Virus record (IMG/VR): IMGVR_UViG_3300028827_000129
Span: 64,001 to 128,000 of that record
Reading direction: 5' to 3' (one strand)
From: a virus
Length of the DNA: 64,000 bases
Positions 1,593 through 30,856 of the stretch are shown here, piece after piece. How positions within the stretch are numbered: the first letter of the stretch is position 1; each line of letters starts with the position of its first letter. Under the pieces are notes generated by a model. That model had not been told where the DNA came from and made no database searches. It worked only from the letters and a program-made list of their open reading frames with translations. The position numbers and the translations under genes were made by a program.

Positions 1593-1735
1593 TTTTCGGC
1601 TTTTTTTGAAAAAAACTTACACTATCCTGTAAGGAGTGAGTGAATGAAATTTTCTAGCATTGAAGTCAAGAACGTTTTAAGAAACTTCGGTTCTTAAAAC
1701 GCAAAGACGGAAATGCAAAAGAAAATTTCATTCAC
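1593..1735 (+). ncRNA. candidate structured element A: conserved 33-nt motif plus ~96-nt rod hairpin with cUUCGg loop
   Basis: Motif shared with 17481-17514; GTGAATGAAATTTTCT/AGAAAATTTCATTCAC outer stem; inner stem capped by CTTCGG. Confidence 0.5.
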
Positions 1736-2543: not shown

Positions 2544-2771
2544 CTAAACCTCCTTAATCCTAACGGTCAAACCGTTATAGCAATTATGGTACTTTACATA
2601 AGTACCATTACGACTCCTTTTAAACAAAGAAAGTACAGAAATTAACCCATTCTTAATGGGTATATCAAAACCAAACAACCTCCTACAATAATCATCTAAA
2701 CATCCCTCCAGTGTTGGATAATAAACATCCAACACTTTCTTCTTGCCAAGATAATAAGTAACCTTGAACAT
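2544..2771 (-). CDS. hypothetical protein (75 aa)
   Basis: Tightly packed operon arrangement. Confidence 0.65.
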   Translation of the reverse strand: MFKVTYYLGKKKVLDVYYPTLEGCLDDYCRRLFGFDIPIKNGLISVLSLFKRSRNGTYVKYHNCYNGLTVRIKEV

Positions 2772-2772
2772 A

Positions 2773-3453
2773 CTAAATATCCTTCAAAATATCATAAGAA
2801 ACGCGCAAATGCCAATTACAAAACAAGCACTGCGTGATATAACTACCTCCATATTCTTTCTCATCCAAATTACCAAACACAGACTCACCGCAATTAGGGC
2901 AAAGTCCATCATCCGGCACACGAGGCATCAAATCATTTTCGGCACAAAACCGTTTTTGTGCCAAAACCTTTCTCTTCAAATCACCAAACATCTCCTCAAA
3001 TACCTCCAAAGAAATAACTCTCCTACCCATAATACACAAACAGTTCTTCAATGGCTCAGTGTAAGCATACATACACCTTCCCCAAGCCCAAAAGAACTGC
3101 TTATATCCCTTCAAAGCCGGGGCATAAAACTTCATCATAGTAGCCTCTTCTACATCCTTCGCAGGAATAATCATCTTAGAGGGCCAAAAATAAAGCCCAA
3201 AAGGCAACCTCTTAACAGGATATACTCCCTGCTTTATCCGCGCATACACACTATCTAACTTTGCTCTCATATCAGGTGCCACAAGAGCAAACTGCACAAG
3301 TTCATAATCACTATGCTTTCTCAGAAAATTCGATATGGAACCCCAAGAACCATATCTACCTTTCTGAGTAAAATAAAAAGGGTTACAACCCAAAGGGTAC
3401 TGTAACCCAATCGTCTCATTTTCCTTACTATACAACATAAACCGATAAGCCAT
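2773..3453 (-). CDS. hypothetical protein with C-terminal Zn ribbon (CPNC...CLFC)
   Basis: GGAGG SD; CxxC pairs. Confidence 0.75.
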   Translation of the reverse strand: MAYRFMLYSKENETIGLQYPLGCNPFYFTQKGRYGSWGSISNFLRKHSDYELVQFALVAPDMRAKLDSVYARIKQGVYPVKRLPFGLYFWPSKMIIPAKDVEEATMMKFYAPALKGYKQFFWAWGRCMYAYTEPLKNCLCIMGRRVISLEVFEEMFGDLKRKVLAQKRFCAENDLMPRVPDDGLCPNCGESVFGNLDEKEYGGSYITQCLFCNWHLRVSYDILKDI

Positions 3454-3464
3454 AACAAACCTCC

Positions 3465-7465: not shown

Positions 7466-8416
7466 TTAGTTACCTTCCCCCATGGGGCATTCACCGCTAG
7501 CGATGACCTCCTGGCAGTAAGGCGCATCGTTCCCGTATGTGCAAATGGCGATACGGTGATACTTGCACGTCTTCCCGCCCGCGAAGCCACGCTCCGGGTC
7601 GCCGTAGGAATCACGGAGCGGCCCGACAACGTAGCCATCAAGGAAGGCCTTGATGTGGTCGGGGCTCCCGGCCTGGCAGACCGTGCGGCCGTCCTGGAGG
7701 GTAGAAACGAAACAAACCCCCTCACGAGCCGCAGCCTCCGGCAACTCCGGAACGTGAATGTCCAGGAAGTTGGCGTAGCTAAGTACTTTGCCATCGAGAT
7801 CTTCCCGGTCTTCCGGATCAAAATAATGAACCAGAATCTTCCGAGACATTCTGATGGCGTCACGAGCCGCTTCCACGTCCCGAAGGATCTCCTCCTCCGA
7901 ACGGCCCTGGAACTTCGCCCTGGAACTGATGCGCCAGCGCATCAGTTCGTCGGGGTCCACCCCAGGACACTTCCCGCGATAAGCAGCGGCCAGACAGTGG
8001 TCCGCTGCCGCAACGAGCTTCAGATTCTCATGAAACTCGTTGCACCTCGGGTAGAGGAGCTTCAGAACCTGCCCCAGGGACGAGGCTTCCCAATACTTCT
8101 TGGGATCCTTCCCGTACCCAGGGTCCCCAGGCCGGTGGTGGTCGAGGAGCTTGCTGTCGTTGAGGCTAGCTGCCTCGCCAACAAACTCACACTCCACCCG
8201 AACGATCTGGGTCGTCGGGTCCTTTACGATCTCCGGGATCGTAGCCTCCGCCTTGTAAGCCTCGAAAGGCTTCACTCGGCAGAGGGTTTCGGCATCGCCA
8301 CAATTGCGAACGGCCGCGTAAGCCACCGGGATTCGGTGTGCTCGCAGCAGCTCTTCGATGGCTGCCATTTCGGGGTCAGGCGCCCCCAGAATGAAGAAGA
8401 GGGTGTTAGTACCCAT
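7466..8416 (-). CDS. DHH-superfamily phosphoesterase-like protein (316 aa)
   Basis: ILGAPDPE, RVEC, LLDHH, AAADH in DHH motif order; AAGGAGG SD. Confidence 0.5.
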   Translation of the reverse strand: MGTNTLFFILGAPDPEMAAIEELLRAHRIPVAYAAVRNCGDAETLCRVKPFEAYKAEATIPEIVKDPTTQIVRVECEFVGEAASLNDSKLLDHHRPGDPGYGKDPKKYWEASSLGQVLKLLYPRCNEFHENLKLVAAADHCLAAAYRGKCPGVDPDELMRWRISSRAKFQGRSEEEILRDVEAARDAIRMSRKILVHYFDPEDREDLDGKVLSYANFLDIHVPELPEAAAREGVCFVSTLQDGRTVCQAGSPDHIKAFLDGYVVGPLRDSYGDPERGFAGGKTCKYHRIAICTYGNDAPYCQEVIASGECPMGEGN

Positions 8417-8448
8417 ATGTACCTCCTTCTCGTGTGTGTTTTAGCCCC

Positions 8449-8685
8449 TTAGAGGGCCAGAGACCGAATTTCGGTCTCGGTGACTTTGCCACCCAAAACG
8501 GAGACAATCTCCTGGATGGCGAGGAGCCTTTCGCTCTGAGTAGGCACCAACTCCTTGAGAAGGTACCTGTAGAACTCAGAGTCTTTGCCGCTAAACCAAG
8601 CGGCCTTTATCGCCAATTTGGCGTTCATACTCTCAACACAGTCTGTATCAAGAGTATTGATGGCGTTAAGCAACTTGTCAGCCAT
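8449..8685 (-). CDS. hypothetical protein (78 aa)
   Basis: Probable start MADKLL at 8685; the longer start lies inside the terminator; weak SD. Confidence 0.5.
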   Translation of the reverse strand: MADKLLNAINTLDTDCVESMNAKLAIKAAWFSGKDSEFYRYLLKELVPTQSERLLAIQEIVSVLGGKVTETEIRSLAL

Positions 8686-8727
8686 GTTTGTATTAACCGT
8701 TACTCTTAAGGGCGTACCTGAGTACGC

Positions 8728-8765
8728 AAAAAACAACGGCTACGACAAGAATGTCGTAGCCGTTG
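8728..8765 (-). terminator. intrinsic terminator
   Basis: CAACGGCTACGACA-AGAA-TGTCGTAGCCGTTG 14-bp stem plus T-tract on the minus strand. Confidence 0.8.
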
Positions 8766-8787
8766 CAGCCCTTAAGACTTTCGAGAA

Positions 8788-9099
8788 TTATCTGCACTGA
8801 ATCTGGATTTCGACTGCATCCTCGCCAATATGACTGAGGAGGGTTTCGAAATCCTTATCCCCAGGCTTAATGACGAAGCCGGCAATCGTCTGCCAGCTGA
8901 CGTTAACCTTCTTTAGAAGGTCTCTGCTTGCCTGAACACCAATGACTTTACCGTTGTCCTTGCAACGGATTATGACGTTCTGCCCCGTCGTATAAAGCAT
9001 GACTTTGTGGGAACGAACCCACAGGGCAGAACCGATTGCCGCCGTGCCAATGGCAACGATGGCGACTTTTTTGATAACATTCACAATCTTCTTACTCAT
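8788..9099 (-). CDS. membrane-anchored protein with two conserved Cys, paralog 1
   Basis: N-terminal TM; AAGGAGG SD before ATG 9099; aligns with 9190..9462. Confidence 0.75.
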   Translation of the reverse strand: MSKKIVNVIKKVAIVAIGTAAIGSALWVRSHKVMLYTTGQNVIIRCKDNGKVIGVQASRDLLKKVNVSWQTIAGFVIKPGDKDFETLLSHIGEDAVEIQIQCR

Positions 9100-9189
9100 A
9101 ATGTCCTCCTTAAATCGGCGTACCTTATACGCCATTATTAGCTGAACTTAGATGTTCAGCTCTTTAGGGTTTTTGGAGATGTTTGTGGG

Positions 9190-9462
9190 TTATTTACAAT
9201 TAACCCTGATCTCCATAACGTCGTCTCCGACGTTTTTGACGAGGGTCGTGAACACCTCGTCTTCCGGCCGGATGATCAGTCCAAGGTAGGACTTCACTCC
9301 GGTCTTTTTGAGGAGTTCAGAGTCGGGCTGAATCCCGACAATTTCTCCTCCCTTTTCGCACCGAAAGATAACGGTGCGGTCGCTGGCGTAGAAGTCGAAC
9401 TTCCACGTCACGTACACCGAAATGGCGAGAAAAAGTGTCAGAACAACCAGAAACCTTTTCAT
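9190..9462 (-). CDS. membrane-anchored protein with two conserved Cys, paralog 2
   Basis: N-terminal TM; AAGGAGG SD. Confidence 0.75.
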   Translation of the reverse strand: MKRFLVVLTLFLAISVYVTWKFDFYASDRTVIFRCEKGGEIVGIQPDSELLKKTGVKSYLGLIIRPEDEVFTTLVKNVGDDVMEIRVNCK

Positions 9463-9542
9463 CTGTGTCCTCCTTAGTTTACCCTTTAAAAGGGTTGTTT
9501 GTCCTTTAATAAGGACTTTCTTTAGTCTTTTACGACTCCTCC

Positions 9543-10325
9543 TTAGAGGAGGTAGTCGTAAAAGACGAAGTAGGGCAGCTTGTCAAGTCGCCTCTTTCCC
9601 CCATCGGCGTACCCGACGATGGGGTATTCCGCCTCCTGGGCGTGGCCACCAAAGTATTCCCTGGTGACCAGGTGCCCAGACCAGGTATTATCCCCGTCAT
9701 ACCTGATCCGGAGGCGGAAGAGCTCCTCGTGCTGCGGCTTGTACAGCCGCTTTGCAATGAGCTCGACCTCCTCCCATTTCTTTTCCCCCTCCTCGTCGGA
9801 GAGGTTCCCTCCGAGGATGCCCTCCAGGATCTCTTCGATGAGACCCTTGACCCGGGCCATCGCCTCGGGAGTGTCCCACTCCCCTTCAGCGATGCCCAGC
9901 GAGGGCACCTCATCGAGGGAGATGACGTCACTCCCGCAGTCACGCGGGGTGACGTCCCCGAACCTCTCGACCTCGATGAGGTCGGGTTCCTCCCTCTTGT
10001 AGAGGAACTCTTTTTTGGGGTGGTCCTGGCGGAAGATCCGCTGGACCTCCCTGTCGGAGGAGACGAGGATCTCCCAGTCCTCGTCCCTGGGGTCAATAAT
10101 GACCGCCCTTCCGAGGATGCGGGAGATGGCCCTAACGGCCTTGATCTCCTCCTCCTTTCCAACCCGGAAGTCGAAAACGACCGGGTTGTGAGGGCTATCC
10201 TCGCCGAAGTACTCGGCGAGGTACCCCTCCGCCTCTTGAATGCCGAAGAGCTCATAGAGCTCCTCGGCCTTTGCCCGACTAACATGTCGGGACGCCTCGT
10301 GGATCGCCATTTCAAACTTTTCCAT
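9543..10325 (-). CDS. acidic hypothetical protein (260 aa)
   Basis: AGGAGG SD before ATG 10325; strong GC3 codon bias. Confidence 0.8.
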   Translation of the reverse strand: MEKFEMAIHEASRHVSRAKAEELYELFGIQEAEGYLAEYFGEDSPHNPVVFDFRVGKEEEIKAVRAISRILGRAVIIDPRDEDWEILVSSDREVQRIFRQDHPKKEFLYKREEPDLIEVERFGDVTPRDCGSDVISLDEVPSLGIAEGEWDTPEAMARVKGLIEEILEGILGGNLSDEEGEKKWEEVELIAKRLYKPQHEELFRLRIRYDGDNTWSGHLVTREYFGGHAQEAEYPIVGYADGGKRRLDKLPYFVFYDYLL

Positions 10326-10524
10326 GGCTATCCTCCTTTCCCTTTGTTTTGCCGGTGAAACCGGCGTCTTTAGGCCTTGTAGAGGCCCTTTACCCGCCAA
10401 ATGCGGGTATTGATCCTCTTAATGAGGATCTTTTCCCCCTTCTGACGGGGGTCATGGGAGGCCGTAGCCTCCCCCTTTTCGCGGGAGATCCACCTCCCGC
10501 CAATACGACAGGACCGGGCCTTCA

Positions 10525-10707
10525 TTAGAAGCCCTCCCGGTCCTTTTCGCCCTGAAGAATCAGGGCGGTGAGGTCGTGGATGTTGGGGCCGCGGTCCCCC
10601 TTCATCCACATCTCGTACTGGGAAATCCAGTACTTCCTTTCGCCGCTCTTGAAGCGGTCCTTTCCGTACTCGCTGAGTACGGTTTTGAGAAATCTCTTTT
10701 TCGTCAT
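10525..10707 (-). CDS. hypothetical protein (60 aa)
   Basis: AAGGAG SD. Confidence 0.65.
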   Translation of the reverse strand: MTKKRFLKTVLSEYGKDRFKSGERKYWISQYEMWMKGDRGPNIHDLTALILQGEKDREGF

Positions 10708-10742
10708 CTTCTCTCTCCTTTCCTTCCTTTCCTTTTCCCGCT

Positions 10743-10898
10743 CTAGCGGGTGCTGTTGGTCAGAGTGACCATGTTCTGACCAACCTTTGCCCAGTCACTT
10801 TCAAACTGGGCTTTGGCGGCGTCGAACAGGCGACATCCGCCGTAAATCATGACAACCATCGCCACGGCGATGGCGATGGCCGTCTTCTTCACAGTCAT
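10743..10898 (-). CDS. signal-peptide/lipoprotein-like microprotein (51 aa), in frame with the upstream gene
   Basis: Translated by hand: MTVKKTAIAIAVAMVVMIYGGCRLF...; no clear SD. Confidence 0.55.
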   Translation of the reverse strand: MTVKKTAIAIAVAMVVMIYGGCRLFDAAKAQFESDWAKVGQNMVTLTNSTR

Positions 10899-10937
10899 CT
10901 TCTTCTTCGTGGTCTTCTTGATCGTCTTCTTTGTGGT

Positions 10938-11882
10938 CTACTTCTTCGCCGTGGTCTTCTTGGCCTTCTTCGCGGCCTTGAAGGCCGCGGCCATCGGGCC
11001 GCGGCCCTTAGCCGCGATGGCCCCGGCCGGTTTGGCCGGGGCCTTTTTGGCCATGACCCAGGCCACGGCCTCGACCACGAGCCGAGGCAACGGCTCGTGG
11101 CCGGAGAGGGCCTTCCTGGCCCCCTCCAAGGCCCTGACGTCGTGCCGCCAGAGGCGGCCGACGCCAAGGCCCTTCATGGCCTGGCGCTGGGCCTCCTTGG
11201 AGGCCCGGCGGGTTTCCTGCAGCCGGGCCTCCTTCTTCTTGAGGGAGGCCTCCTCCTCCAGGAGGCCCTCCATGGCCTCCTGGAGGTCCTCAAGGAGACC
11301 CAGGGCATCCGCCCCGGCCTCCCCGGCCTCCCGGATCTCGGCGATGGCCTTCCAGCCCTCGCCGAGGAGCCGGCGGATGTACCGCCGCCGGCGGCTGACC
11401 TCCTTCAGCCGCTTTCCGGCGACGTAACCGCGCCAGTAGGCGCGGTCCACCGACTCAAACCACGTCGCCGGCCTTTCGGCCAGCGACGTGATGTCAATGA
11501 GGGCCTTCTGGGTCTTCCTGGCCCAGAAGGCCTTCTCCTCGCCCCTCTTGAGGGCGAGGAGAAGGGCCCTCTCCTCCCGGTTAAGGGAGGAGAGGGCCTC
11601 CCTGAAGGCCTTCTCGCCCTTCTTGATGGCCGCCTCAAGGGCGGCCTCCTCCTCAGCGGACCGCTGAGGAGGAACGACCTTCTCCCCCTCCTCCTTCATC
11701 CGCACCTTCTCGGTACGGATAAAAGACTTCGGCCGCGGCTTGTAGGCCTCGGCCTTCTTGGCCTCGGCCTTGGCCTTCCTGGCCGAGGCCTCGGCTTTGC
11801 GGGCCTCGGCCCTCCTGGCCGAGGCCTCTTCCTTTGCCTGCTCCAGGAGCAGGCGCACATCGTAGAGGTCCATGGTCTTCAT
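10938..11882 (-). CDS. Ala/Lys/Glu/Arg-rich helical protein with histone-H1-like C-terminal tail
   Basis: AAGGAGG SD; KKAPAKPA...KAAKKAKKTTAKK; GC3 bias. Confidence 0.8.
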   Translation of the reverse strand: MKTMDLYDVRLLLEQAKEEASARRAEARKAEASARKAKAEAKKAEAYKPRPKSFIRTEKVRMKEEGEKVVPPQRSAEEEAALEAAIKKGEKAFREALSSLNREERALLLALKRGEEKAFWARKTQKALIDITSLAERPATWFESVDRAYWRGYVAGKRLKEVSRRRRYIRRLLGEGWKAIAEIREAGEAGADALGLLEDLQEAMEGLLEEEASLKKKEARLQETRRASKEAQRQAMKGLGVGRLWRHDVRALEGARKALSGHEPLPRLVVEAVAWVMAKKAPAKPAGAIAAKGRGPMAAAFKAAKKAKKTTAKK

Positions 11883-12148
11883 GGCTCCTCCTTAAGCCCT
11901 ATCACGTAGCCAGGCAACGTCAAAGACGCCGTCCATGGCTTACGTTTCCCAGCGGTCGGGCTAAGCCGCTGGGCTCTTTCGGGCCTTATCGGCCCTTTTT
12001 CTGGCATCGTCTCAAGGACGTGCCAAAGAATCCCTCCTACAAAAGCAGAAGAGATTCTTTGGCACCCCGAATCACTTCAGGGATGCCGTGTGGGGGCGGG
12101 CCGTACAGCATCGGGGCGGCCCGCCCCCGGAGGTCCTCCGGTACCTGG

Positions 12149-12487
12149 CTATGCAGCCAGATACCGAAGGATCCGATCATCGTCGTCCTGGCAGCCCACC
12201 AGGACAACGAGTCGCCTGAGAGCGCAATAGCGCTCTCCAGACAACTGCAGATGCTCCCGAAGGAGCACCTTGAACCTCCTGATGTCGCCGCCGCAGTATG
12301 CGGCGGCCCGGAGGGCCATCAGTTCCTCCGGGCTCCTGGCCATGTCCGGATCCAGGGTTGCGAGGCCCTGGAGGACCGCCAAAACCATCTCCTCGAAGGA
12401 GACGACCACCTTCTCCTTCTGCGCCTCGGCCTTCTTGGCCGCCCTCCTGGCGGCCTTTTTCAGTTTCTTCTTTTCACGCTTTTTCAT
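12149..12487 (-). CDS. hypothetical protein with basic N-terminus (112 aa); first gene of the leftward block
   Basis: AGGAG SD; GC3 bias. Confidence 0.7.
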   Translation of the reverse strand: MKKREKKKLKKAARRAAKKAEAQKEKVVVSFEEMVLAVLQGLATLDPDMARSPEELMALRAAAYCGGDIRRFKVLLREHLQLSGERYCALRRLVVLVGCQDDDDRILRYLAA

Positions 12488-12489
12488 GA

Positions 12490-13100
12490 CGGTTCTCTCT
12501 CCTTTCTGGGCCTTTTTATGACCTGCCCAGGTCTGATTATGGGGGTAAAACCCCCTCTATATACCCGATTGCTCGGGCATATAGAGGGGGCCTCTGCCAG
12601 AGCCAGAGGCCACATACGGTGGGTGCCTAGGCATACTAGGATATGCCCACTATGCCCCATCATGGGGCGTGGCATGGTCTCTGGCAGAGGCCCACCAGCC
12701 CAGGGATCGATGGACATCCACTCCCTGGGCATGGGGCGGGATATTTATCGCTACGCGCCTCCTTCTCCAGACACATACTCACCTCTAATCATGGCTCGTT
12801 AGAGCCATTGGGCTTTCGTGCCTATGGAGATTTTTCCGCCACAGGCGCGTGCCACCACCCGGGGATGCAGATGCCTGCAGAGCCCCGGGCTGCCAGGTAG
12901 CAGCTCGGTGGACTTGTACGCGATGCACGTGGCATCACTGGGGCGCTGGCAGTCCCCTCCTCCAGGAGCTGGGGTTACGATGGGTGGGGTAGAGAGGCTG
13001 GAGAACCTCTCTGAGACCCCCCGGGCTCGTAACTGCCCTTTAGCTCCCTTTGGAGCCTCATTACACCAGGCCTTCTCCCCCTACCTCTCACCCCTGTCCT
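12490..13100. other. GC-rich, hairpin-tiled, probably non-coding region
   Basis: Many adjacent inverted repeats; no convincing ORF with an SD. Confidence 0.6.
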
Positions 13101-16749: not shown

Positions 16750-17325
16750 TTAGATGATCTCATGAATAATGCCGCGATTTAAAGCTTCCCATGCAGTGAA
16801 CCAAAATTCTTTGCCCGACTTAATATAACTTAATTCCTCGTTAGAAAAATAATCACCGAAAAAATCATGAAGCCGCGCTTCTGTATTTGTTCTCAAAATA
16901 TCTATACATGACGTATGATGACTGATTTGATCTTGCCCCAGCGAAGTAGAAGCCTCATGTAACATGAAAGTAGAATACTTATAAGCCTTACGTGTCTTAC
17001 CAAGCATAAGAATATAAAGCCCGGCAGATAAACAATTGCCGCTTGCAACAGTTGTAAAATTATCAATTTCTCCTACTAGACCCTCTAAGAGGTCTAGTGC
17101 TGCTAAATCACCACCTGATGTCGTAATGTTTAAAATAACTTCATCATCACTATGTGCATCTTGTAAGATCTTCGTAACGTCAAGTATATTCTTTCTGTTT
17201 ACCTCGCCGCTAAAGAAAACTTCGTACCTCGTTTTCAGCGGCGTAACCTTTCCGAAAACTTCCTCGCCCCCCGCTTCCTCGCGGGGGTCTTCATCTTCTT
17301 CCAACCTAATACGGGGTAAAGTCAT
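16750..17325 (-). CDS. ClpP-like serine protease
   Basis: ITTSGGD, CLSAG (catalytic Ser), FMLHEAS (His), WFTAWEALNRGII. Confidence 0.85.
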   Translation of the reverse strand: MTLPRIRLEEDEDPREEAGGEEVFGKVTPLKTRYEVFFSGEVNRKNILDVTKILQDAHSDDEVILNITTSGGDLAALDLLEGLVGEIDNFTTVASGNCLSAGLYILMLGKTRKAYKYSTFMLHEASTSLGQDQISHHTSCIDILRTNTEARLHDFFGDYFSNEELSYIKSGKEFWFTAWEALNRGIIHEII

Positions 17326-17480
17326 ATAAAAACCTCCTGCCTTATGGGATATGTTTTATTATACCACAGCGCAGCGCCATAAACAAAGCCGCTGCGCTTT
17401 CTATATTGGCTATTACCACAAAAATTAGCATATCGTCTTTGGACGATATGTTTAGTAAGCAATAACCGTGCTAAAATTTT

Positions 17481-17628
17481 TTTTCGGCTTTTTCCGAAAA
17501 AAAACTTACACTATACGTTGACAAACGTAAAGGCGAGGAAAAGAACGGATAAAGCTTACGGTTAATATAAAACATGGTAATGTTCTTATATTTAAGCTTT
17601 AGACGTTCTTTGACGAGACTTTACGTTT
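17481..17628 (+). ncRNA. candidate structured element B: conserved motif plus ~105-nt rod hairpin
   Basis: Motif shared with 1593-1625; nested pairs AAACGTAAAG/CTTTACGTTT, AAGAACG/CGTTCTT, AAAGCTTA/TAAGCTTT, AATATAA/TTATATT, AACAT/ATGTT. Confidence 0.5.
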
Positions 17629-17650
17629 ATTAAAAATAATAAAACCATAA

Positions 17651-17931
17651 ATATCTCTCCCTTAAGGGGAGAGATATAAAACATAACCGTAAATATATAT
17701 ATAAAGCATAAATATATATATAAAACACACATAGGGATACGTTACTTAATATACCTTTAAGGTATATTAAGTAACGTATCCCGTATATAAAACATAAAAC
17801 ATAAAGGCCATAAGATATTCTTTAGAATATCTTATGGCCGTACCTAGGATATAAGATACTCTTTAATAGAGTATCTTATATCCGTAAAACATAAAAAACA
17901 TAGTAATAGAAAGTCGTCTTAAAAAGACGAC
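17651..17931. repeat. array of five perfect palindromes with AAAACATA-type spacers (origin-like)
   Basis: Arms of 11, 24, 16, 16 and 8 bp at 17651, 17734, 17806, 17847 and 17913. Confidence 0.9.
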
Positions 17932-17942
17932 GATAAAAAGAG

Positions 17943-17970
17943 AAAAAAATAAGGCCCCCTGCCGGGGGCC
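17943..17970 (-). terminator. intrinsic terminator
   Basis: GGCCCCC-TGCC-GGGGGCC plus T-tract on the minus strand, after the 18008 gene end. Confidence 0.8.
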
Positions 17971-18007: not shown

Positions 18008-18310
18008 TTAGTTCTTAACGGGCTTTTCATCGTCCCGCGCCGCGCTTTCTGATTTTACCTTCTCTACCATCTTGTCGATGACTTCTCTGATCTCACCTTC
18101 ATTAACGATTCCCTTGTTAACCAGTAACTGGGCTAAACCCTCGATCATAATGGCACAAGAGAGGAAGGTATGATTGTTTGTTTCTAGAATTGCTTTGTGT
18201 AGATCCTTGCCAAAGTCAGAGAGAATTGAATAGATCTCTCTTGTGATTCTTTGTAGGTCTTCTTGAGTGGGTGCTGTGTGAGAATTATTATCTTTTACTT
18301 GTTCCGCCAT
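18008..18310 (-). CDS. hypothetical protein (100 aa)
   Basis: AGGAGG SD. Confidence 0.75.
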   Translation of the reverse strand: MAEQVKDNNSHTAPTQEDLQRITREIYSILSDFGKDLHKAILETNNHTFLSCAIMIEGLAQLLVNKGIVNEGEIREVIDKMVEKVKSESAARDDEKPVKN

Positions 18311-18471
18311 TTGATCCTCCTGCTTGACTTGAAGCTTTTAATGCCTTCTTTGATGTGAGCTACTTTTATGAGCCCCATAAACGATTTGTCATCACACGTC
18401 TTTTCTAGCTGAGCTAGAAAGTTTTCATATTCCATCAAAAGATTTTTAAGTTTACTGTATGAGTTAGCCAT
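18295..18471 (-). CDS. hypothetical protein (58 aa)
   Basis: AAGGAGG SD before ATG 18471. Confidence 0.7.
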   Translation of the reverse strand: MANSYSKLKNLLMEYENFLAQLEKTCDDKSFMGLIKVAHIKEGIKSFKSSRRIKWRNK

Positions 18472-18546
18472 AAGTACCTCCTTGAATGTATTTGGTCTAG
18501 CAATATAGTATAGCCATTGATTTTCTTGGATTTTAACGTTGTGGTA

Positions 18547-18555
18547 TGGTATAAT
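18547..18555 (+). promoter_or_regulatory. sigma70-type extended -10 (TGGTATAAT)
   Basis: Lies at the divergence point upstream of 18597. Confidence 0.55.
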
Positions 18556-18596
18556 ACAAGTAGGAAGTAATATTTTTGCCATGCGGAGGTAGGCAT

Positions 18597-19088
18597 ATGA
18601 AAGACATCGATGCATATTATGACGATATGATCGAAGACGACTCTGTCGACTACAGAGTCGAGCTCAGAAAAGACAAGAACATAAGCGTTAAAACAATCAC
18701 CGGAACAACATTCAATAACTCATGTAAACGCCAAATCGACGGAGTGTGTAAGAATCATAAGCAAATTCCAATGCGCATAAACGATAAAATCGTGCATATA
18801 GACCAAGGAATAGCCAATATCGTATACGCCATGAATAACATCGACGGCATTACTACCAAGTATAGTTGCGAAGGAGATGATGCAGCTGGACAAAAGCCCT
18901 ACATTCTGTTTTCTGCGAAGTCTATAAACGCCATCAAAACCGTATGTAATCTATTTCGAGACAATGCACAAGAGGTAGATATAGTTTTAGAATGCCTTAG
19001 AGCCTCACAGAGCAGTTTTTCTAAAGAACTTGACCTAGCGGTCATATTTCATAAGAAATCGTCTCTACGGGGCTCTAAGATGCCTTAG
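18597..19088 (+). CDS. hypothetical protein with a TYW3-N-like motif (IDxxI...N..GITTKYSCEG)
   Basis: GGAGG SD before ATG 18597. Confidence 0.65.
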   Translation: MKDIDAYYDDMIEDDSVDYRVELRKDKNISVKTITGTTFNNSCKRQIDGVCKNHKQIPMRINDKIVHIDQGIANIVYAMNNIDGITTKYSCEGDDAAGQKPYILFSAKSINAIKTVCNLFRDNAQEVDIVLECLRASQSSFSKELDLAVIFHKKSSLRGSKMP

Positions 19089-20092: not shown

Positions 20093-23000
20093 ATGTTACA
20101 TAGTAATAATTTTTTTAGGAATGCTTGGTTTCTTGATTTTGAGACGACTGGTCTTAACCCATCCCAGCATTATATCTGGGAAGTTGGTTATGCCAGATTC
20201 AGTGATTTAGTTTCTCCTAAAGGTAAATATAGACATTTCTTCATTAAGCCCCCGGGTGAATACAACACGGGGGCTCAAGAATTTTTAGCACATTATCGAT
20301 CTATCACTTCCCCAAAAGTTCTTGATCTTTTTGGCGTCAGAGGCTCTGAGAAGCCGTTTGTCGAGCATACACGACATCTCTTATCGAAACTATCTCAAGA
20401 CGAAAGAGAACGCCTTGGATTGCATGAGAGACGTCCGTGGCAGGAAGAAATTTCATTTATTAAAGAAAGACAGAAAGGCCGCGTTACTGGGTTTGCTGCT
20501 TTAGAGCATGCTTTAAGAGGACAGAAAGGTGCTAGTCATGTTAGGTCGTTAGAAGAGTTTTGGAATAGATTTTTTATAGAAGTCCCAATGAGAGGGTCAG
20601 ATGTCTGGGTTCAAAACTTATACTTTGAATCTAGCTTTGCTGCACAACATATCCCGAATAATTTATGGACTCAACATAAGCGTTCAATAGAGCGGTTTGA
20701 CCCAATAAGCCGTCGATTTCAACAACCTCTAGAGTTATTACAGGCAAGATCAAAAGCTTTTACTGCAGGCGATCAAATTTCCGCATGGGCTGATTATTAC
20801 AAGACATTAAGAGATGTTGTAGCAGCCGGGCCACAGAAGGGACAAATGCGGTTTTTTGACCTTATGGACCTTAGCCGCAGCATGGTAGCTCTTGCTAAGC
20901 AAAGAGGATATATAAATCCTAATCAGGGTATAGGTCTTTCAGTTGAGAGCTTCTTAAGGGCTGCTACTGCATCTGGAGATAAGCAATTTGAGTCTTTTAG
21001 GGGGAAGCTTGATGAGATTTTATCATTGGGCTATGGTGATTTAGAGAAGCATAGAGCCGTAAGTGACATTAGAGTCGAAGCGTTAATGGCCCAAAGATAT
21101 CAGCGCATAGCTGAAGCTTTATACCAAGGCCATGCTTTATCTGAAGAAGACGCCGCATTGTTAAATGCTTTACAAGATAAAAAGTTACATAGAGACATAC
21201 ACATAGAAAGGTTCAAGAATACAATTAGTGAAGCATATGAAATTGCTAAGAGTCCAGCTGGATATAAGCTGCTTGTTGGTAAGTATCCAGACTTATTCCC
21301 CGAATTTGGTACATTCAGGCCTGTTGTTGAGAAAACAAGGCCAAGTTTACGTGGACAAACATTAGAGTTGGAGCAATTTAATTACAGCTATTTTCATTCA
21401 GAGGTTGCTACAGAAAAAGATTTAAAGTCTATTTTGAAGTATCATATTCATGAGCTTAAACAGTATGTCGATATCGGAAACGAAGAATTACGGGATATTA
21501 TTAAGAAAGCTATTCCAAGAGACGTTGATGTCTCTGGCATTGTAGAAAAGCCTTCATTTGCAGAGAGCGCAGCTGGTGGACTTAAAAGATTTATTCGAGC
21601 ATCGGCAAGAGACTTGAAGGGCATTAGGTATGGTAATTTACTCGGAGTGCCGCTTGGACTTCTTGCTGTTGCATATGGCGTGCGTTCATATATGATGAAA
21701 AATGAAGATGACTTTGAAGCTATTGTATCAGACGCGCAAATTTCTAGCGATGATGAGGATTATATCCAGGTAGAAGCATTAAGTCACAAGGGCCTATCTC
21801 ATATCTCCAGAAGACAGTTGACTGATTTTGGGAGTGGCTGGCAAGGATTGCCAAAGAAGATTTTCCATGGTGCTCATGTTGGGATTTTAGAAAAAGAATT
21901 CAAAGGCTTATTAGCTAGAACAACAAAGCATATTCATGAAGGTGTTGCTGAAAGAATTTATGGCGTTTGGTTTACATCAAGCTTTAAGGAAGCAGAGGAG
22001 ATAGCTCAATTAAGAGCAGCAGCAAGAGGTACAGAGCCAGCAATCTTTGAAATTGATACAGAAGTCTTGCAGAAATATCATGTGCCTTTCCAGTCGTTTA
22101 AGGCTGAAGATGATATTATGCATTATGCTGTACAAAGAGATATCCCTATATCATTTTTGAAGATGCATAAATTAAAGACGCGCAGCCTTGAGAAAGAAGA
22201 GAAGGTTTTTGAGCTTGATATTGATGATGTATTAAAAGATTCAAAAATATCAGCCAAAGATGATGATTACAATACTATCGAATCCCTAAAACATGAAGGC
22301 GTAGCCGGAAAAAAGCGTAAAAAGAATACTGATTTCGGTAGTGGATATAGAGGTTTGCTTAGTGCACATAATTGGGAAGGCAGAAATATAGCAGAAGAGA
22401 TATTGGATTTTAGAAATGAATATATTCTTGACAAGCGCAATAGAGATGATTTGCGAGGTAGATTGCACCAAGAGCAGATTAAGGCATTAGCGAGACTTGG
22501 GCGATTCAAAGGGAAAGAAGTGCATTTAGCGACCGATCTGCCTGAATTTATTCATACAAACAAGAAGTTATATTATGTAAACACTGATGATTTTAAAGTA
22601 ACTATTGAAGACGCAGACACGTTGATTCTTAAAAGACGAGGGCTTTTAAATATATTCGACAAGCCAATCTATATCCGCGTTGCTGGCCTTGACGCCCCTG
22701 AAACTGAAGCCCACGATTTAGATCCACTATCTTTTGTTAGATGGCACCAGTCACAACCTATGGGCGAAGAGACGACAGAATTATCTAGAGATGTATACAA
22801 AAATTTGTCTCGCATCTATTTCAATCCTAGCAGACTGACATATGGTAGATATGTTGGAGTCTTAACGGACGATGAAGGAACTAATTTAAACATAAAGGCC
22901 CTAGAGGCAGGCTTGGGTACAGAGCTTTATTGGAGCAGAGATAGTTTATTTAATAAATCAGATCTTAAAAATGCGGAAGATTTTGCGAAGATAAGAGGCA

Positions 23001-27637: not shown

Positions 27638-27835
27638 ATGTTTGGTGTAGAAGATAAGCATCTTGGAGCATGTTTGGCAATTATTAACTTTTTCGAAGAA
27701 AAACTATCTAAGGATAATCGAGATGTTGCTACTGATGTTTTAATGCTAAAGCCAAGCTTTAGAAGTTTAGAGAATTTATATGCAATGAGAAGTGTTTTAA
27801 ACTCTTACGTAGACCAAAGTGAAGAAGATGAGTAG
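27638..27835 (+). CDS. hypothetical protein (65 aa)
   Basis: Operon packing. Confidence 0.6.
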   Translation: MFGVEDKHLGACLAIINFFEEKLSKDNRDVATDVLMLKPSFRSLENLYAMRSVLNSYVDQSEEDE

Positions 27836-29072
27836 TAAGTTTATAAAAGAATGCGTTCCATGTTCAGAGCGGCTAAATTTGTCTGAAGAGTTTAATGTAT
27901 CAGATGATTTAGTAAATATTTTTATGCATTGGGCTGATTTTTCTTTAGAAAATGCTAAGGCTATCAATAGACTTCTTAATAGCACTGATGTCTATGACTC
28001 ATATTGTGAGTTGTTAGATTTTTTTGATTCCCAATGCGTCGTAGATCTAAAGGCCATTTTTAGCCTTCTTGCATGGCAACTTGCTAATCTTAATACTGCT
28101 TTATTGTATAATTTACGTTCTGGTATTTTTAGCTTATTATCTCCATTTTTTATGCCGCTAACTGGCAAGTTAACTGATCTTTTAAATAAGTATATAAGTT
28201 TGGTTTTGCCTAAGATTGACTGTTCTATAAATTCCCTTATTGATGTTCTAGATAAGATCCCAGGGGAAACAGAGATAGAAGAGATTGTTTATAGATATAA
28301 ACTTGCAAAAGAGGAACTGTCTACGCATGAGTACAATATAAAAAATCGTATTTTAGAAAGGGACCATGCAATTTTATCTGGTAGTGACTTATCTTCACTT
28401 AAGACGTCTTCTTATGCATCTGCTGATAATTACGGAGATGCTATAGAGATGATAAAGCAGGTAGGGAAGCGGAGTAAGTCACTGCCGAGAGACAAGTATT
28501 TCAATTTTATTGTTAAACCAATGGCTGATGCTAGAAATAAGATTAATAATAAACTACAAGAGCTTAAGAATGACCTAGAAGGATTCATTAGACTTGACGC
28601 ATCATCGTCCAGTGATTTTGCATTTTTAATCCAACAGATTACATCTGTTAAGCGCATATTGTCTTTTTTAGAGCCAGTAATAAATGGGCAATTCTCTCGT
28701 TCTGCAGCTGGATGTGATGGTACTTCCTTTTTTAGAAAGAAGCCTGATGTTGGACAAAGTGTGCCAAAAAATACCACAAATAACAAAGGGGATACATTCG
28801 GAGATAATACTGATAATACTGCAGAAGTTATGTCAAGAAATGTCGCCAAGAATGAAAAAACTATAATATCTGATGAGATAGTTTTACAAAATTTGAATGC
28901 TATTTTGGAAGATTCTGGCTTTGAAGTTGTAACAGAGAATAATAAAATAACGTTAAAAACTAAAGACTTAGATAAAAATGTTGTTTCAAGTGTACAGGCG
29001 AATTTTGGATTTTTTGCACGTTTGAGTAATGGAATTGATGCTAAGACAGATTCTAAGGATTTTTGTACATGA
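27828..29072 (+). CDS. helical hypothetical protein (~414 aa)
   Basis: Long ORF directly upstream of the portal. Confidence 0.75.
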   Translation: MSSKFIKECVPCSERLNLSEEFNVSDDLVNIFMHWADFSLENAKAINRLLNSTDVYDSYCELLDFFDSQCVVDLKAIFSLLAWQLANLNTALLYNLRSGIFSLLSPFFMPLTGKLTDLLNKYISLVLPKIDCSINSLIDVLDKIPGETEIEEIVYRYKLAKEELSTHEYNIKNRILERDHAILSGSDLSSLKTSSYASADNYGDAIEMIKQVGKRSKSLPRDKYFNFIVKPMADARNKINNKLQELKNDLEGFIRLDASSSSDFAFLIQQITSVKRILSFLEPVINGQFSRSAAGCDGTSFFRKKPDVGQSVPKNTTNNKGDTFGDNTDNTAEVMSRNVAKNEKTIISDEIVLQNLNAILEDSGFEVVTENNKITLKTKDLDKNVVSSVQANFGFFARLSNGIDAKTDSKDFCT

Positions 29073-30856
29073 GCAATATTAATAATATTAAAAAACGCAA
29101 CACAAGAAGAAAAAAGCGTGGCGCTGGCACTAATATGAATCCTGATCGTCAGTTGAAAGTTGTCAGGTCATCTCATATTCCTTTATATTACGAGGCCGGT
29201 AGGGACTCTTTTGTAGTTGCAGAATATGACTTGCGAGAAATTTCTACTATTGAAGATGTCGAGTCTTTCGTAAGACAAGCTTTTAGAAAAAAAACATCTT
29301 TAATGTTCAAGGAAGGATATGATCTTGTAGGTGAAAATATCGAAACTATAAATTATATTAAGGAGAGATTCAGGCAAATTTCATATGTTTCCGATAAGCC
29401 GATCGATTTGCTGTTGCGAGAGATTGGTGCTGACTTAATAAAGTTCTCTAATGCGTTTTTGTATAAAGCTAGAAGCGCTAGATCTTCAGGCGGGCGTGTT
29501 AGGGTTTCAAAAACGGGCAAACGTAAGTTAGACCCTGTTGCTGCATACTTTAGAATCCCACCTGAAACTGTTCAAATAAGACTTAGTAAGTCTAATAAGA
29601 TTACACATTACAGACAAATGATGCCGGATGGTAGATATAAAGATTTTGCTGCTGAAGATATTATTCATATCTATCATGATCGCAAGGCTGGGTTTATCAT
29701 GGGAACTCCGGCATTAATCCCAGTTATTGACGACATTAAGGTTTTGCGTAGGATTGAAGAAAATGTAGAGTTAATGGTATATAAAGACCTTTTCCCTCTT
29801 TATCATTATAAGGTTGGGACTGAAGATGCTCCGGCGATGACATATGGGGATGGCACTACGGAAGTTGACATAGTGCGTGATGCCATAGAACAAATGCCAT
29901 TAGAAGGTACTGTAGTAACTTCTGAACGTCATAATATTAATGTGATAGGCGCTGAAGGTCATGCATTAAAGGCTAGTGAATATCTTGATTATTTTAAAAA
30001 GCGTGTCTATGCTGGACTAGGGTGTTCTTCAATTGACTTTGGAGAAAGTGGTACTTCTAACAGATCTACGTCTGAGACTCTATCGAAAGCTCTTATAGAT
30101 GATGTGAAGGGCTATCAGAAAGTATTGTCAATCTTTATTAATCATTATATCATTAAGGAACTTTTATTAGAAAGTCCGTTTGTTGTAGGATGGAATGTTA
30201 ATACGAAGGATGAGGTTTACTTTAAGTTTAAAGAGATAGATGTAGATACAAATATTAAGAAGAGCGCTGATGCTGTTAATCTTTTTAACTCTAATTTGAT
30301 AGAAGAAAATGAGGCGCGTGAAATGATTGGATATGAGCCAATGACTGAAGAGCAGCGCAAACGGACTTTCAGTGAACTTGTTGGCAAACCAATGGCTGAA
30401 CATGAATCTTTACTTAAAAACAAAGTAGAAGGTTCTGTTTCATCTGCAAAGAATAGGGTGCAGCCTGAGAATCAACATGGGAAGAAAACAGGACCTCAGA
30501 AGTCAGTTAAAGATCTCGTATCTTTTGTTTTTGACGGATTAAAGGCAGGTAAAAATAAAGATATTAATGCCATATTAGCTTCAATGTTCAGCGATATGTT
30601 TATTGTTAAATATACTATACTTCTTGAGGAAGAAGTTAAAGATAAATTAAAACTTGAAGAATATTCTACTTTGTTAGTTAATACTGTTAATGAATCTATT
30701 AATGATTTATCTGTTATTGCTTTAGATTCACTTAATAGAGATTTAAGCAGAAATAGAGAAGATTTGCCAAGTTTAGATGTTTTAAAGAAAGTGTTTGTAA
30801 AGCATATACAAGCTACTAAAGATGGGTTCAGTGCTGCTTGTGAGCTTTTGCAATAA
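29069..30856 (+). CDS. portal protein
   Basis: Size; position between TerL and protease; DLIKFSNAFLYK, EDIIHI..GFIMGTP, ENEAREMIGYEP. Confidence 0.85.
   Translation: MSNINNIKKRNTRRKKRGAGTNMNPDRQLKVVRSSHIPLYYEAGRDSFVVAEYDLREISTIEDVESFVRQAFRKKTSLMFKEGYDLVGENIETINYIKERFRQISYVSDKPIDLLLREIGADLIKFSNAFLYKARSARSSGGRVRVSKTGKRKLDPVAAYFRIPPETVQIRLSKSNKITHYRQMMPDGRYKDFAAEDIIHIYHDRKAGFIMGTPALIPVIDDIKVLRRIEENVELMVYKDLFPLYHYKVGTEDAPAMTYGDGTTEVDIVRDAIEQMPLEGTVVTSERHNINVIGAEGHALKASEYLDYFKKRVYAGLGCSSIDFGESGTSNRSTSETLSKALIDDVKGYQKVLSIFINHYIIKELLLESPFVVGWNVNTKDEVYFKFKEIDVDTNIKKSADAVNLFNSNLIEENEAREMIGYEPMTEEQRKRTFSELVGKPMAEHESLLKNKVEGSVSSAKNRVQPENQHGKKTGPQKSVKDLVSFVFDGLKAGKNKDINAILASMFSDMFIVKYTILLEEEVKDKLKLEEYSTLLVNTVNESINDLSVIALDSLNRDLSRNREDLPSLDVLKKVFVKHIQATKDGFSAACELLQ

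Follow-up and report, generated by a model that had tools for sequence, protein, structure and literature searches.

The question raised by positions 1593–1735 of this phage DNA is what a conserved 33-nt motif, followed by a rod-shaped hairpin of about 100 nt, might specify. An earlier note had proposed, from the letters alone, a promoter and a small structured RNA read from the + strand, opposite to the surrounding genes and divergent from a NADAR gene.

The window, that is the whole stretch of 64,000 nucleotides analyzed here, corresponds to bases 64001–128000 of a 170,083-bp IMG/VR phage record with a GC content of 35.7% and a 54-bp terminal overlap. Coordinates are those of the window unless they are given as genome positions. 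The phage has a contractile tail, and the genes for the sheath, the large terminase, the portal, and the major head protein are on the + strand from ~18.6 kb onward. Its genome is organized in two arms: genes and GC skew run leftward over 1–82.5 kb and rightward over 82.5–170 kb. The switch between the arms is at window positions 18474–18597, and both copies of the motif lie within the leftward arm. This is an orphan phage: no deposited phage has a terminase more than 37% identical to its own, nothing among 5.8 billion proteins or in IMG/VR exceeds 43–44% identity, and a megablast search with 8 kb of the window against 50,697 phage records returned no match. All eight tRNA genes belong to the leftward arm. 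A GC-rich island at 7500–13000 (GC 0.55–0.71, genome mean 0.36) is dense in GC-rich hairpins, folds to −91 kcal/mol per 120 nt, and has ORFs overlapping on both strands; at its edge, around 13.0 kb, the GC content falls abruptly to 0.35 and the coding strand switches.

One motif in two copies, each followed by a different rod

The motif is present exactly twice in the whole 170,083-bp genome, at 1593–1625 and 17481–17514, both times on the + strand. The recurrence reported in the earlier note is therefore confirmed, and no further copy was found elsewhere in the genome, even when two mismatches were allowed in the halves of its core. The 23-nt core pattern matches twice in the window and not once in 100 shuffles. 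The two copies, with the rod that follows each of them, define modules A and B, whose features and neighbors are as follows:

1094–1576, − strand: NADAR-domain gene (Pfam E = 3e-22), with its RBS and start 8–17 nt left of motif A
1593–1625, + strand: motif copy A, made of a T/A-rich inverted repeat TTTTCGG-N6-TTGAAAA (1593–1612), an A-tract, and the −10-like hexamer TACACT (1618–1623)
1634–1742 (core 1640–1735), + strand: rod A, 40 pairs, with purine-rich internal loops and a c(UUCG)g cap
1880–2215, − strand: upstream leftward gene of module A, 111 aa, no family
16750–17325, − strand: ClpP-like protease gene, left of module B
17429–17450, − strand: terminator-like hairpin with a T-run, between motif B and the promoter of the ClpP-like gene
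17481–17514, + strand: motif copy B, in which the inverted repeat is perfect (TTTTCGG-N6-CCGAAAA), an A is added, and TACACT occupies 17507–17512
17518–17633 (core 17523–17628), + strand: rod B, 44 pairs, with three 2×2 GA/GA loops and a GGUA apical loop
17651–17970, − strand: array of six different, mostly perfect palindromes with arms of 7–24 bp, ATAAAACATA-type spacers, and (TA)n tracts
18008–18310, − strand: upstream leftward gene of module B, 100 aa, no family, bounding a 680-bp noncoding gap

Besides its extra A, copy B differs from copy A by a TT/CC difference. Sequence identity between the modules covers ~25 nt upstream of TACACT and ends 2 nt past this hexamer; the rods downstream are unrelated and have no sequence in common. 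Judged from sequence, 33 conserved nucleotides followed by unrelated rods are the pattern that would be expected of a conserved promoter with variable products. The upstream inverted repeat of the motif could be the binding site of a factor. Extra operator-like sites of the form TTTCGG-N-CCGAAA are not enriched, as there are 20 in the genome versus 17.7 in shuffles.

Each copy of the motif is followed, 5–16 nt further on, by a long unbranched rod hairpin, at 1634–1742 in module A and at 17518–17633 in module B. In the core of rod A, an outer stem of 16 bp gives way to three shorter helices (5, 3, and 11 bp) and to a UUCG cap closed by a C-G pair. Folding bears out this interrupted rod as the earlier note had drawn it at 1640–1735 (RNA MFE −45.1 kcal/mol, z = −7.6, none of 200 shuffles as stable) and adds five further pairs, which extend it to 1634–1742. 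For rod B, z is −7.3. Both rods are 65–68% A+T. In a genome-wide fold scan, no other unbranched rod of more than 75 nt and a GC content below 0.36 was as stable as these two, and they were the only intergenic rods of such a kind in a seed-based search of the 64-kb window. Two unrelated sequences of one shape, right behind the only two copies of a motif, cannot be chance.

Two other sequence features came up in the course of this survey. At 1631–1697, on the + strand, a consensus Shine–Dalgarno sequence AAGGAG (1631–1636) stands 7 nt before the ATG of a 17-codon ORF (1644–1697, MKFSSIEVKNVLRNFGS), and the outer stem of rod A hides both the Shine–Dalgarno sequence and the ATG. This ORF has neither a counterpart in module B nor toxin-like hydrophobicity, and it is probably fortuitous as a gene; no toxin-like ORF was found. 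At genome positions 22051–22210, a bidirectional terminator precedes a 56-nt near-perfect AT-rich hairpin. This third AT-rich hairpin pair (genome 22.05–22.2 kb) lacks the motif and was rejected as a further module.

Read leftward, the two modules have the same order: terminator or terminators, rod, motif, next gene. In module A, this next gene is the NADAR gene, whose start codon is 17 nt from the motif. As the earlier note had it, the gene faces away from the motif. The NADAR neighborhoods of 34 IMG/VR phages show no more than 48% identity. On the other side, the gene at 1880–2215 is followed by a weak terminator-like hairpin (1840–1824) and then by an unstructured spacer (1743–1879). Module B lies in the most AT-rich noncoding gap (GC 0.30, 680 bp), ~1 kb from the arm junction. 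At least four palindromes of the array at 17651–17970 carry a T-rich tail on the − strand; they look like terminators in tandem behind the gene at 18008–18310, and may also have a role in an origin. The ClpP-like gene has an extended −10 promoter of its own (TGTGGTATAAT, 17368–17358, − strand). As rod B is placed between the terminator array and this promoter, little leftward RNA should contain it.

Strand preference of the rods and the motif as a possible promoter

Several features distinguish the + strand of the rods. Among the internal-loop residues on this strand, 35 of 41 are purines (18 of 19 in A and 17 of 22 in B; binomial P = 2e-6). The GA/GA loops of rod B, which are tandem G·A on the + strand, are UC/UC on the opposite one. 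G·U pairs are found on the + strand only, one at the foot of each rod and two in the motif hairpin of module A, including the TT/CC difference. There is none among the 76 core pairs of the two rods; because these are all Watson–Crick, both strands can fold. The + strand nevertheless folds better than the − strand, by 2.5–4.6 kcal/mol as RNA (−45.1 vs. −40.5 in A and −52.8 vs. −50.3 in B) and also as single-stranded DNA (−27.6 vs. −24.8 and −28.1 vs. −25.5, respectively). These observations favor a single-stranded + strand molecule, RNA or DNA, as the functional form or as one of two functional forms. The lack of G·U pairs in the cores fits the need of a sense/antisense pair if both strands must fold, and it fits a DNA-level element too.

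TACACT stands near the end of the motif in both copies, in line with the earlier note, and matches TATAAT at four of six positions, including T1, A2, and T6. It is separated from the foot of the extended rod by 10 nt in A and by 5 nt in B, so that a normal start 6–8 nt downstream would fall at the base of the rod in both modules. The other elements of a promoter are missing: there is no −35 hexamer (TTCGGC, at a 17-bp spacing, matches at only two of six positions), neither copy has a TG extension at −15/−14, and neither was called in a scan with the sigma-70 consensus. Other likely promoters of this phage have TGnTATAAT or TATAATATA boxes, unlike the TACACT of the motif. Moreover, the opposite strand at TACACT reads (T/G)ATAGT, a −10-like hexamer that is just as weak. 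Neither a Sigma70_r2 nor an RNase III gene was found in the phage genome.

The 3′ side of the putative transcripts is less marked. No + strand intrinsic terminator follows rod A in 1743–2709, and the flank at 1736–1900 is unstructured (z = +1.5). After rod B, the first terminator-like site on this strand is at 17953–17970 and has a poor U-tract. The 3′ ends of the transcripts are therefore undefined, and an RNA started at A would run antisense into coding genes.

Hence, of the promoter proposed in the earlier note, the three key −10 positions and a start that fits the rod foot stand, set against the missing −35 and TG elements, the failure of the sigma-70 scan, and the weak hexamer on the other strand. 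Its + strand RNA, opposite to the surrounding genes, gains from the strand-specific features of the rods (purine loops, tandem G·A, UUCG cap, G·U pairs, better + fold) and from the fit between TACACT and the rod foot, the promoter itself being predicted.

Searches for relatives, families, and targets

The rods match no family in the Infernal search that the earlier note had recommended: with the covariance models of Rfam 15, the window gave no hit at the gathering threshold and, at the E-value threshold, only generic microRNA-precursor look-alikes far below gathering. The motif search recommended at the same time gave no copy in this genome beyond the pair, and neither a diverged copy nor a comparable motif–rod pair was found in 1 Mb of sequence from 62 terminase loci of distant relatives. 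An exact scan of IMG/VR with the 23-nt core had no hit. The 17-nt 3′ part of the motif had 29 chance hits there, all without the upstream half and without rods. In GTDB (185,579 species genomes, one per species), we obtained 16 single, low-complexity chance matches to the motif. None of these 16 is in an array and none includes the 3′ part of the motif, and we rejected a CRISPR repeat or an RNA anti-CRISPR as its identity. Within the phage genome, the search for trans targets of the rods yielded only 13- to 14-mers at chance level. For the hypothetical roles put forward in the earlier note (decoy, antitoxin, or RNase III substrate), the genome offered neither a toxin-like ORF nor an RNase III gene nor a trans target.

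Exact 11-mers of the 3′ part of the motif in two loci, L068 and L106, were set aside as chance. The single hit in L068 is beside an extended −10; that in L106 is in a bidirectional terminator region, and the genome concerned has 11 hits versus 7 in the control, which is no enrichment. L068 comes from a syntenic relative (TerL 43% identical), in which a 760-bp gap full of short hairpins (2695–3455) occupies the corresponding arm junction, between leftward genes and a block encoding a 272-aa protein, a 1017-aa protein, and the terminase.

We also considered the two copies of the motif as att sites of a 15.9-kb segment. No Phage_integrase or Resolvase match was obtained genome-wide and there is no compositional boundary at the motif copies; this reading fails because no recombinase is encoded. 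The pair of elements is real, nonrandom, and strand-specific. In general type it is familiar (a promoter-like motif of a phage joined to a structured RNA or DNA), and it belongs to no known family.

Candidate functions of the two modules

Among the functions that can be proposed for these modules, we tentatively favor two paralogous structured RNAs of the + strand, probably cis-antisense, expressed from a dedicated factor-dependent promoter. The modules would then be genes for rod-shaped RNAs of ~100 nt whose transcription opposes that of the leftward gene blocks. Their promoter would be the 33-nt motif, nearly identical in the two copies, with TACACT as the −10 element and the T/A-rich inverted repeat, centered near −28, replacing the −35 element as the site of a phage or host factor; alternatively, the motif may be what a phage polymerase recognizes. 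Transcription would start 0–4 nt before the foot of each rod, and with such a start the 5′ end of the RNA would be buried in the long helix. The rods would be perfectly complementary to any leftward read-through transcript from the upstream operon, which makes cis-antisense their most likely action. In module A, the RNA might insulate the NADAR operon from read-through or process the read-through into it; in module B, it might pair with the 3′ region of the 18008–18473 operon.

Cis-antisense RNAs with a bulged rod are known in phages, plasmids, and IS elements, for example lambda OOP, P22 sar, CopA of R1, and RNA-OUT of IS10. Like the RNAs proposed here, they combine a short RNA opposite to its neighbors, a promoter of its own, a long bulged helix, and a 5′ end at the foot of this helix. 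These four RNAs have an intrinsic terminator and a mapped target, whereas the modules have no + strand terminator and their transcripts are predicted. The modules further differ from OOP-type RNAs in that two nonhomologous rods share one 33-nt promoter-like motif, and no sequence or Rfam kinship with these RNAs was found. If the modules are real RNA genes, this phage, which already seems unusually rich in noncoding RNAs, has two more that are structured, antisense, and under a private class of promoter, one of them facing an anti-defense-type gene (NADAR). Whichever reading is true, the 33-nt motif is a compact and directly testable element.

It is possible, if on the unlikely side, that the modules act at the DNA level in replication, each coupling a promoter-like sequence to a downstream stretch that unwinds or folds readily. 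They would be origins of the primer-RNA or R-loop type, or strand-specific single-stranded initiation hairpins read by the phage primase, the + strand hairpin forming in displaced single-stranded DNA. The logic is that of oriF and oriG of phage T4, which are ~100 bp long and consist of an activator-dependent promoter (−10 TAnnnT, no −35) and an A+T-rich downstream element; they have this promoter type in common and little other sequence (PMC3016281). The modules match this form by their common motif and unrelated A+T-rich rods, and origin activity is a candidate function for them. The T4 downstream elements are, however, unwinding elements and not long rods, and the MotA box is absent from the modules. 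The position of module B speaks for an origin, as it lies in the most AT-rich gap, among palindromes and ATAAAACATA repeats and ~1 kb from the divergence of arms and GC skew. So does the structure of the rods, with Watson–Crick-only helices, purine–purine mismatches that DNA hairpins tolerate, and a better fold of the + strand as single-stranded DNA too. Module A fits less well: it is 16 kb inside the leftward arm, has no other origin-like features, and is flanked by unstructured DNA (1743–1879). Furthermore, a long imperfect rod is not readily extruded from double-stranded DNA, and the UUCG cap confers special stability on RNA but not on DNA. As GC skew follows gene orientation in this genome, it gives no independent location for an origin.

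Instead of starting a + strand RNA, the motif might act on the − strand, as the promoter and/or 5′ leader of the NADAR and ClpP-like units, possibly for a phage polymerase; the rod would then be an insulator or a template-strand hairpin. We regard this as unlikely. Both modules are at the equivalent place in their leftward operons, the NADAR gene has no other recognizable promoter, 17 nt separate its ATG from the motif, and (T/G)ATAGT reads leftward. A precedent is provided by the virion RNA polymerase of phage N4, whose early promoters are present in three copies with a conserved inverted repeat and a strand-specific hairpin stability (PMC4496689). Because the + strand is the template for leftward genes, the asymmetry of the + hairpins would match that of N4, in which the template-strand hairpin is kept (PMC4496689). 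The N4 hairpins, which drive adjacent early genes, have a stem of 5–7 bp and a 3-nt loop centered at −11 (PMC4496689). By contrast, the motif hairpin has a 6-nt loop, the 100-nt rods are without counterpart in N4, and the N4 enzyme is of an unrelated polymerase family.

A second precedent is the tail-borne two-barrel polymerase of phage P23-45, a tail-fused virion enzyme that uses 14 copies of an AT-rich promoter located beside pre-early genes, in the orientation of these genes, together with a conserved 26-nt terminator motif (PMC10770324). The sequence HIDTDGDILN, with a DxDGD-type motif, is found at residue 1075 of a 1463-aa tail-module protein of our phage (48398–52789). Motifs of this type are present in the catalytic loop of RNA polymerases of the cellular type, and the protein is a putative tail-borne two-barrel RNA polymerase. 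A leftward promoter would gain from this protein, as the P23-45 type of enzyme uses its own AT-rich promoters (PMC10770324). The modules, however, are only two, few for the promoter class of a specific polymerase, and if they are + strand promoters they are opposite to their flanking genes. In addition, if the motif were a leftward promoter, its conservation would be nearly all in the transcribed leader while the −35 and upstream region would be unconserved, and the start would fall within an unfavorable run of seven or eight T. In module B, moreover, a terminator-like hairpin (17450–17429) and a separate good promoter intervene between the motif and the gene.

A related proposal, which we consider improbable, is that the motif and the strand-specific rod together form the recognition unit of a phage enzyme (the putative two-barrel RNA polymerase or the phage primase) and not of the host sigma-70 polymerase. 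Acting as a promoter or priming signal that depends on structure, with a logic like that of N4 but unrelated proteins, they would initiate the earliest synthesis of RNA or DNA at two defined sites of the genome. Should the modules mark origins, or drive transcription by a polymerase of the phage, they would offer a first handle on how replication or early transcription starts in this orphan lineage of large phages with contractile tails.

Rods with internal loops are typical substrates of RNase III, and rod A has a leftward cistron on either side and no more than a weak terminator ahead of it. Rods acting as processing or stability hairpins of the leftward polycistronic mRNA, like the R sites of T7, with the motif as an adjacent mRNA element, are nonetheless distinctly improbable. 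The strand asymmetry points to the opposite, non-mRNA strand, and rod B has a terminator array on one side and the promoter of the following gene on the other. The leftward arm, 82 kb long, has just two sites of this sort, the phage encodes no RNase III, and a conserved flank of 33 nt would be atypical.

Finally, the phage encodes a reverse transcriptase, and the layout of the modules, in which a long rod that varies comes after a small conserved hairpin, recalls the succession of msr and msd. Yet a role of the modules as msr-msd-like templates or recognition RNAs, used in trans by this retron-type enzyme, is highly improbable, as its gene is 37 and 53 kb away from the modules, no a1/a2 inverted repeats flank them, and nothing connects the two except an AT-rich match of 14 nt that is at chance level (E = 0.09). 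The reverse transcriptase itself is a 520-aa protein encoded at genome positions 27649–29211 on the − strand (locus L066, 1294–2856). It matches RVT_1 with E-values of about 8e-20 to 2e-18, and its best matches are retron reverse transcriptase models (E = 4e-28). The protein is extended by 240 aa at its N terminus, and its gene adjoins one encoding a glutamine-amidotransferase domain.
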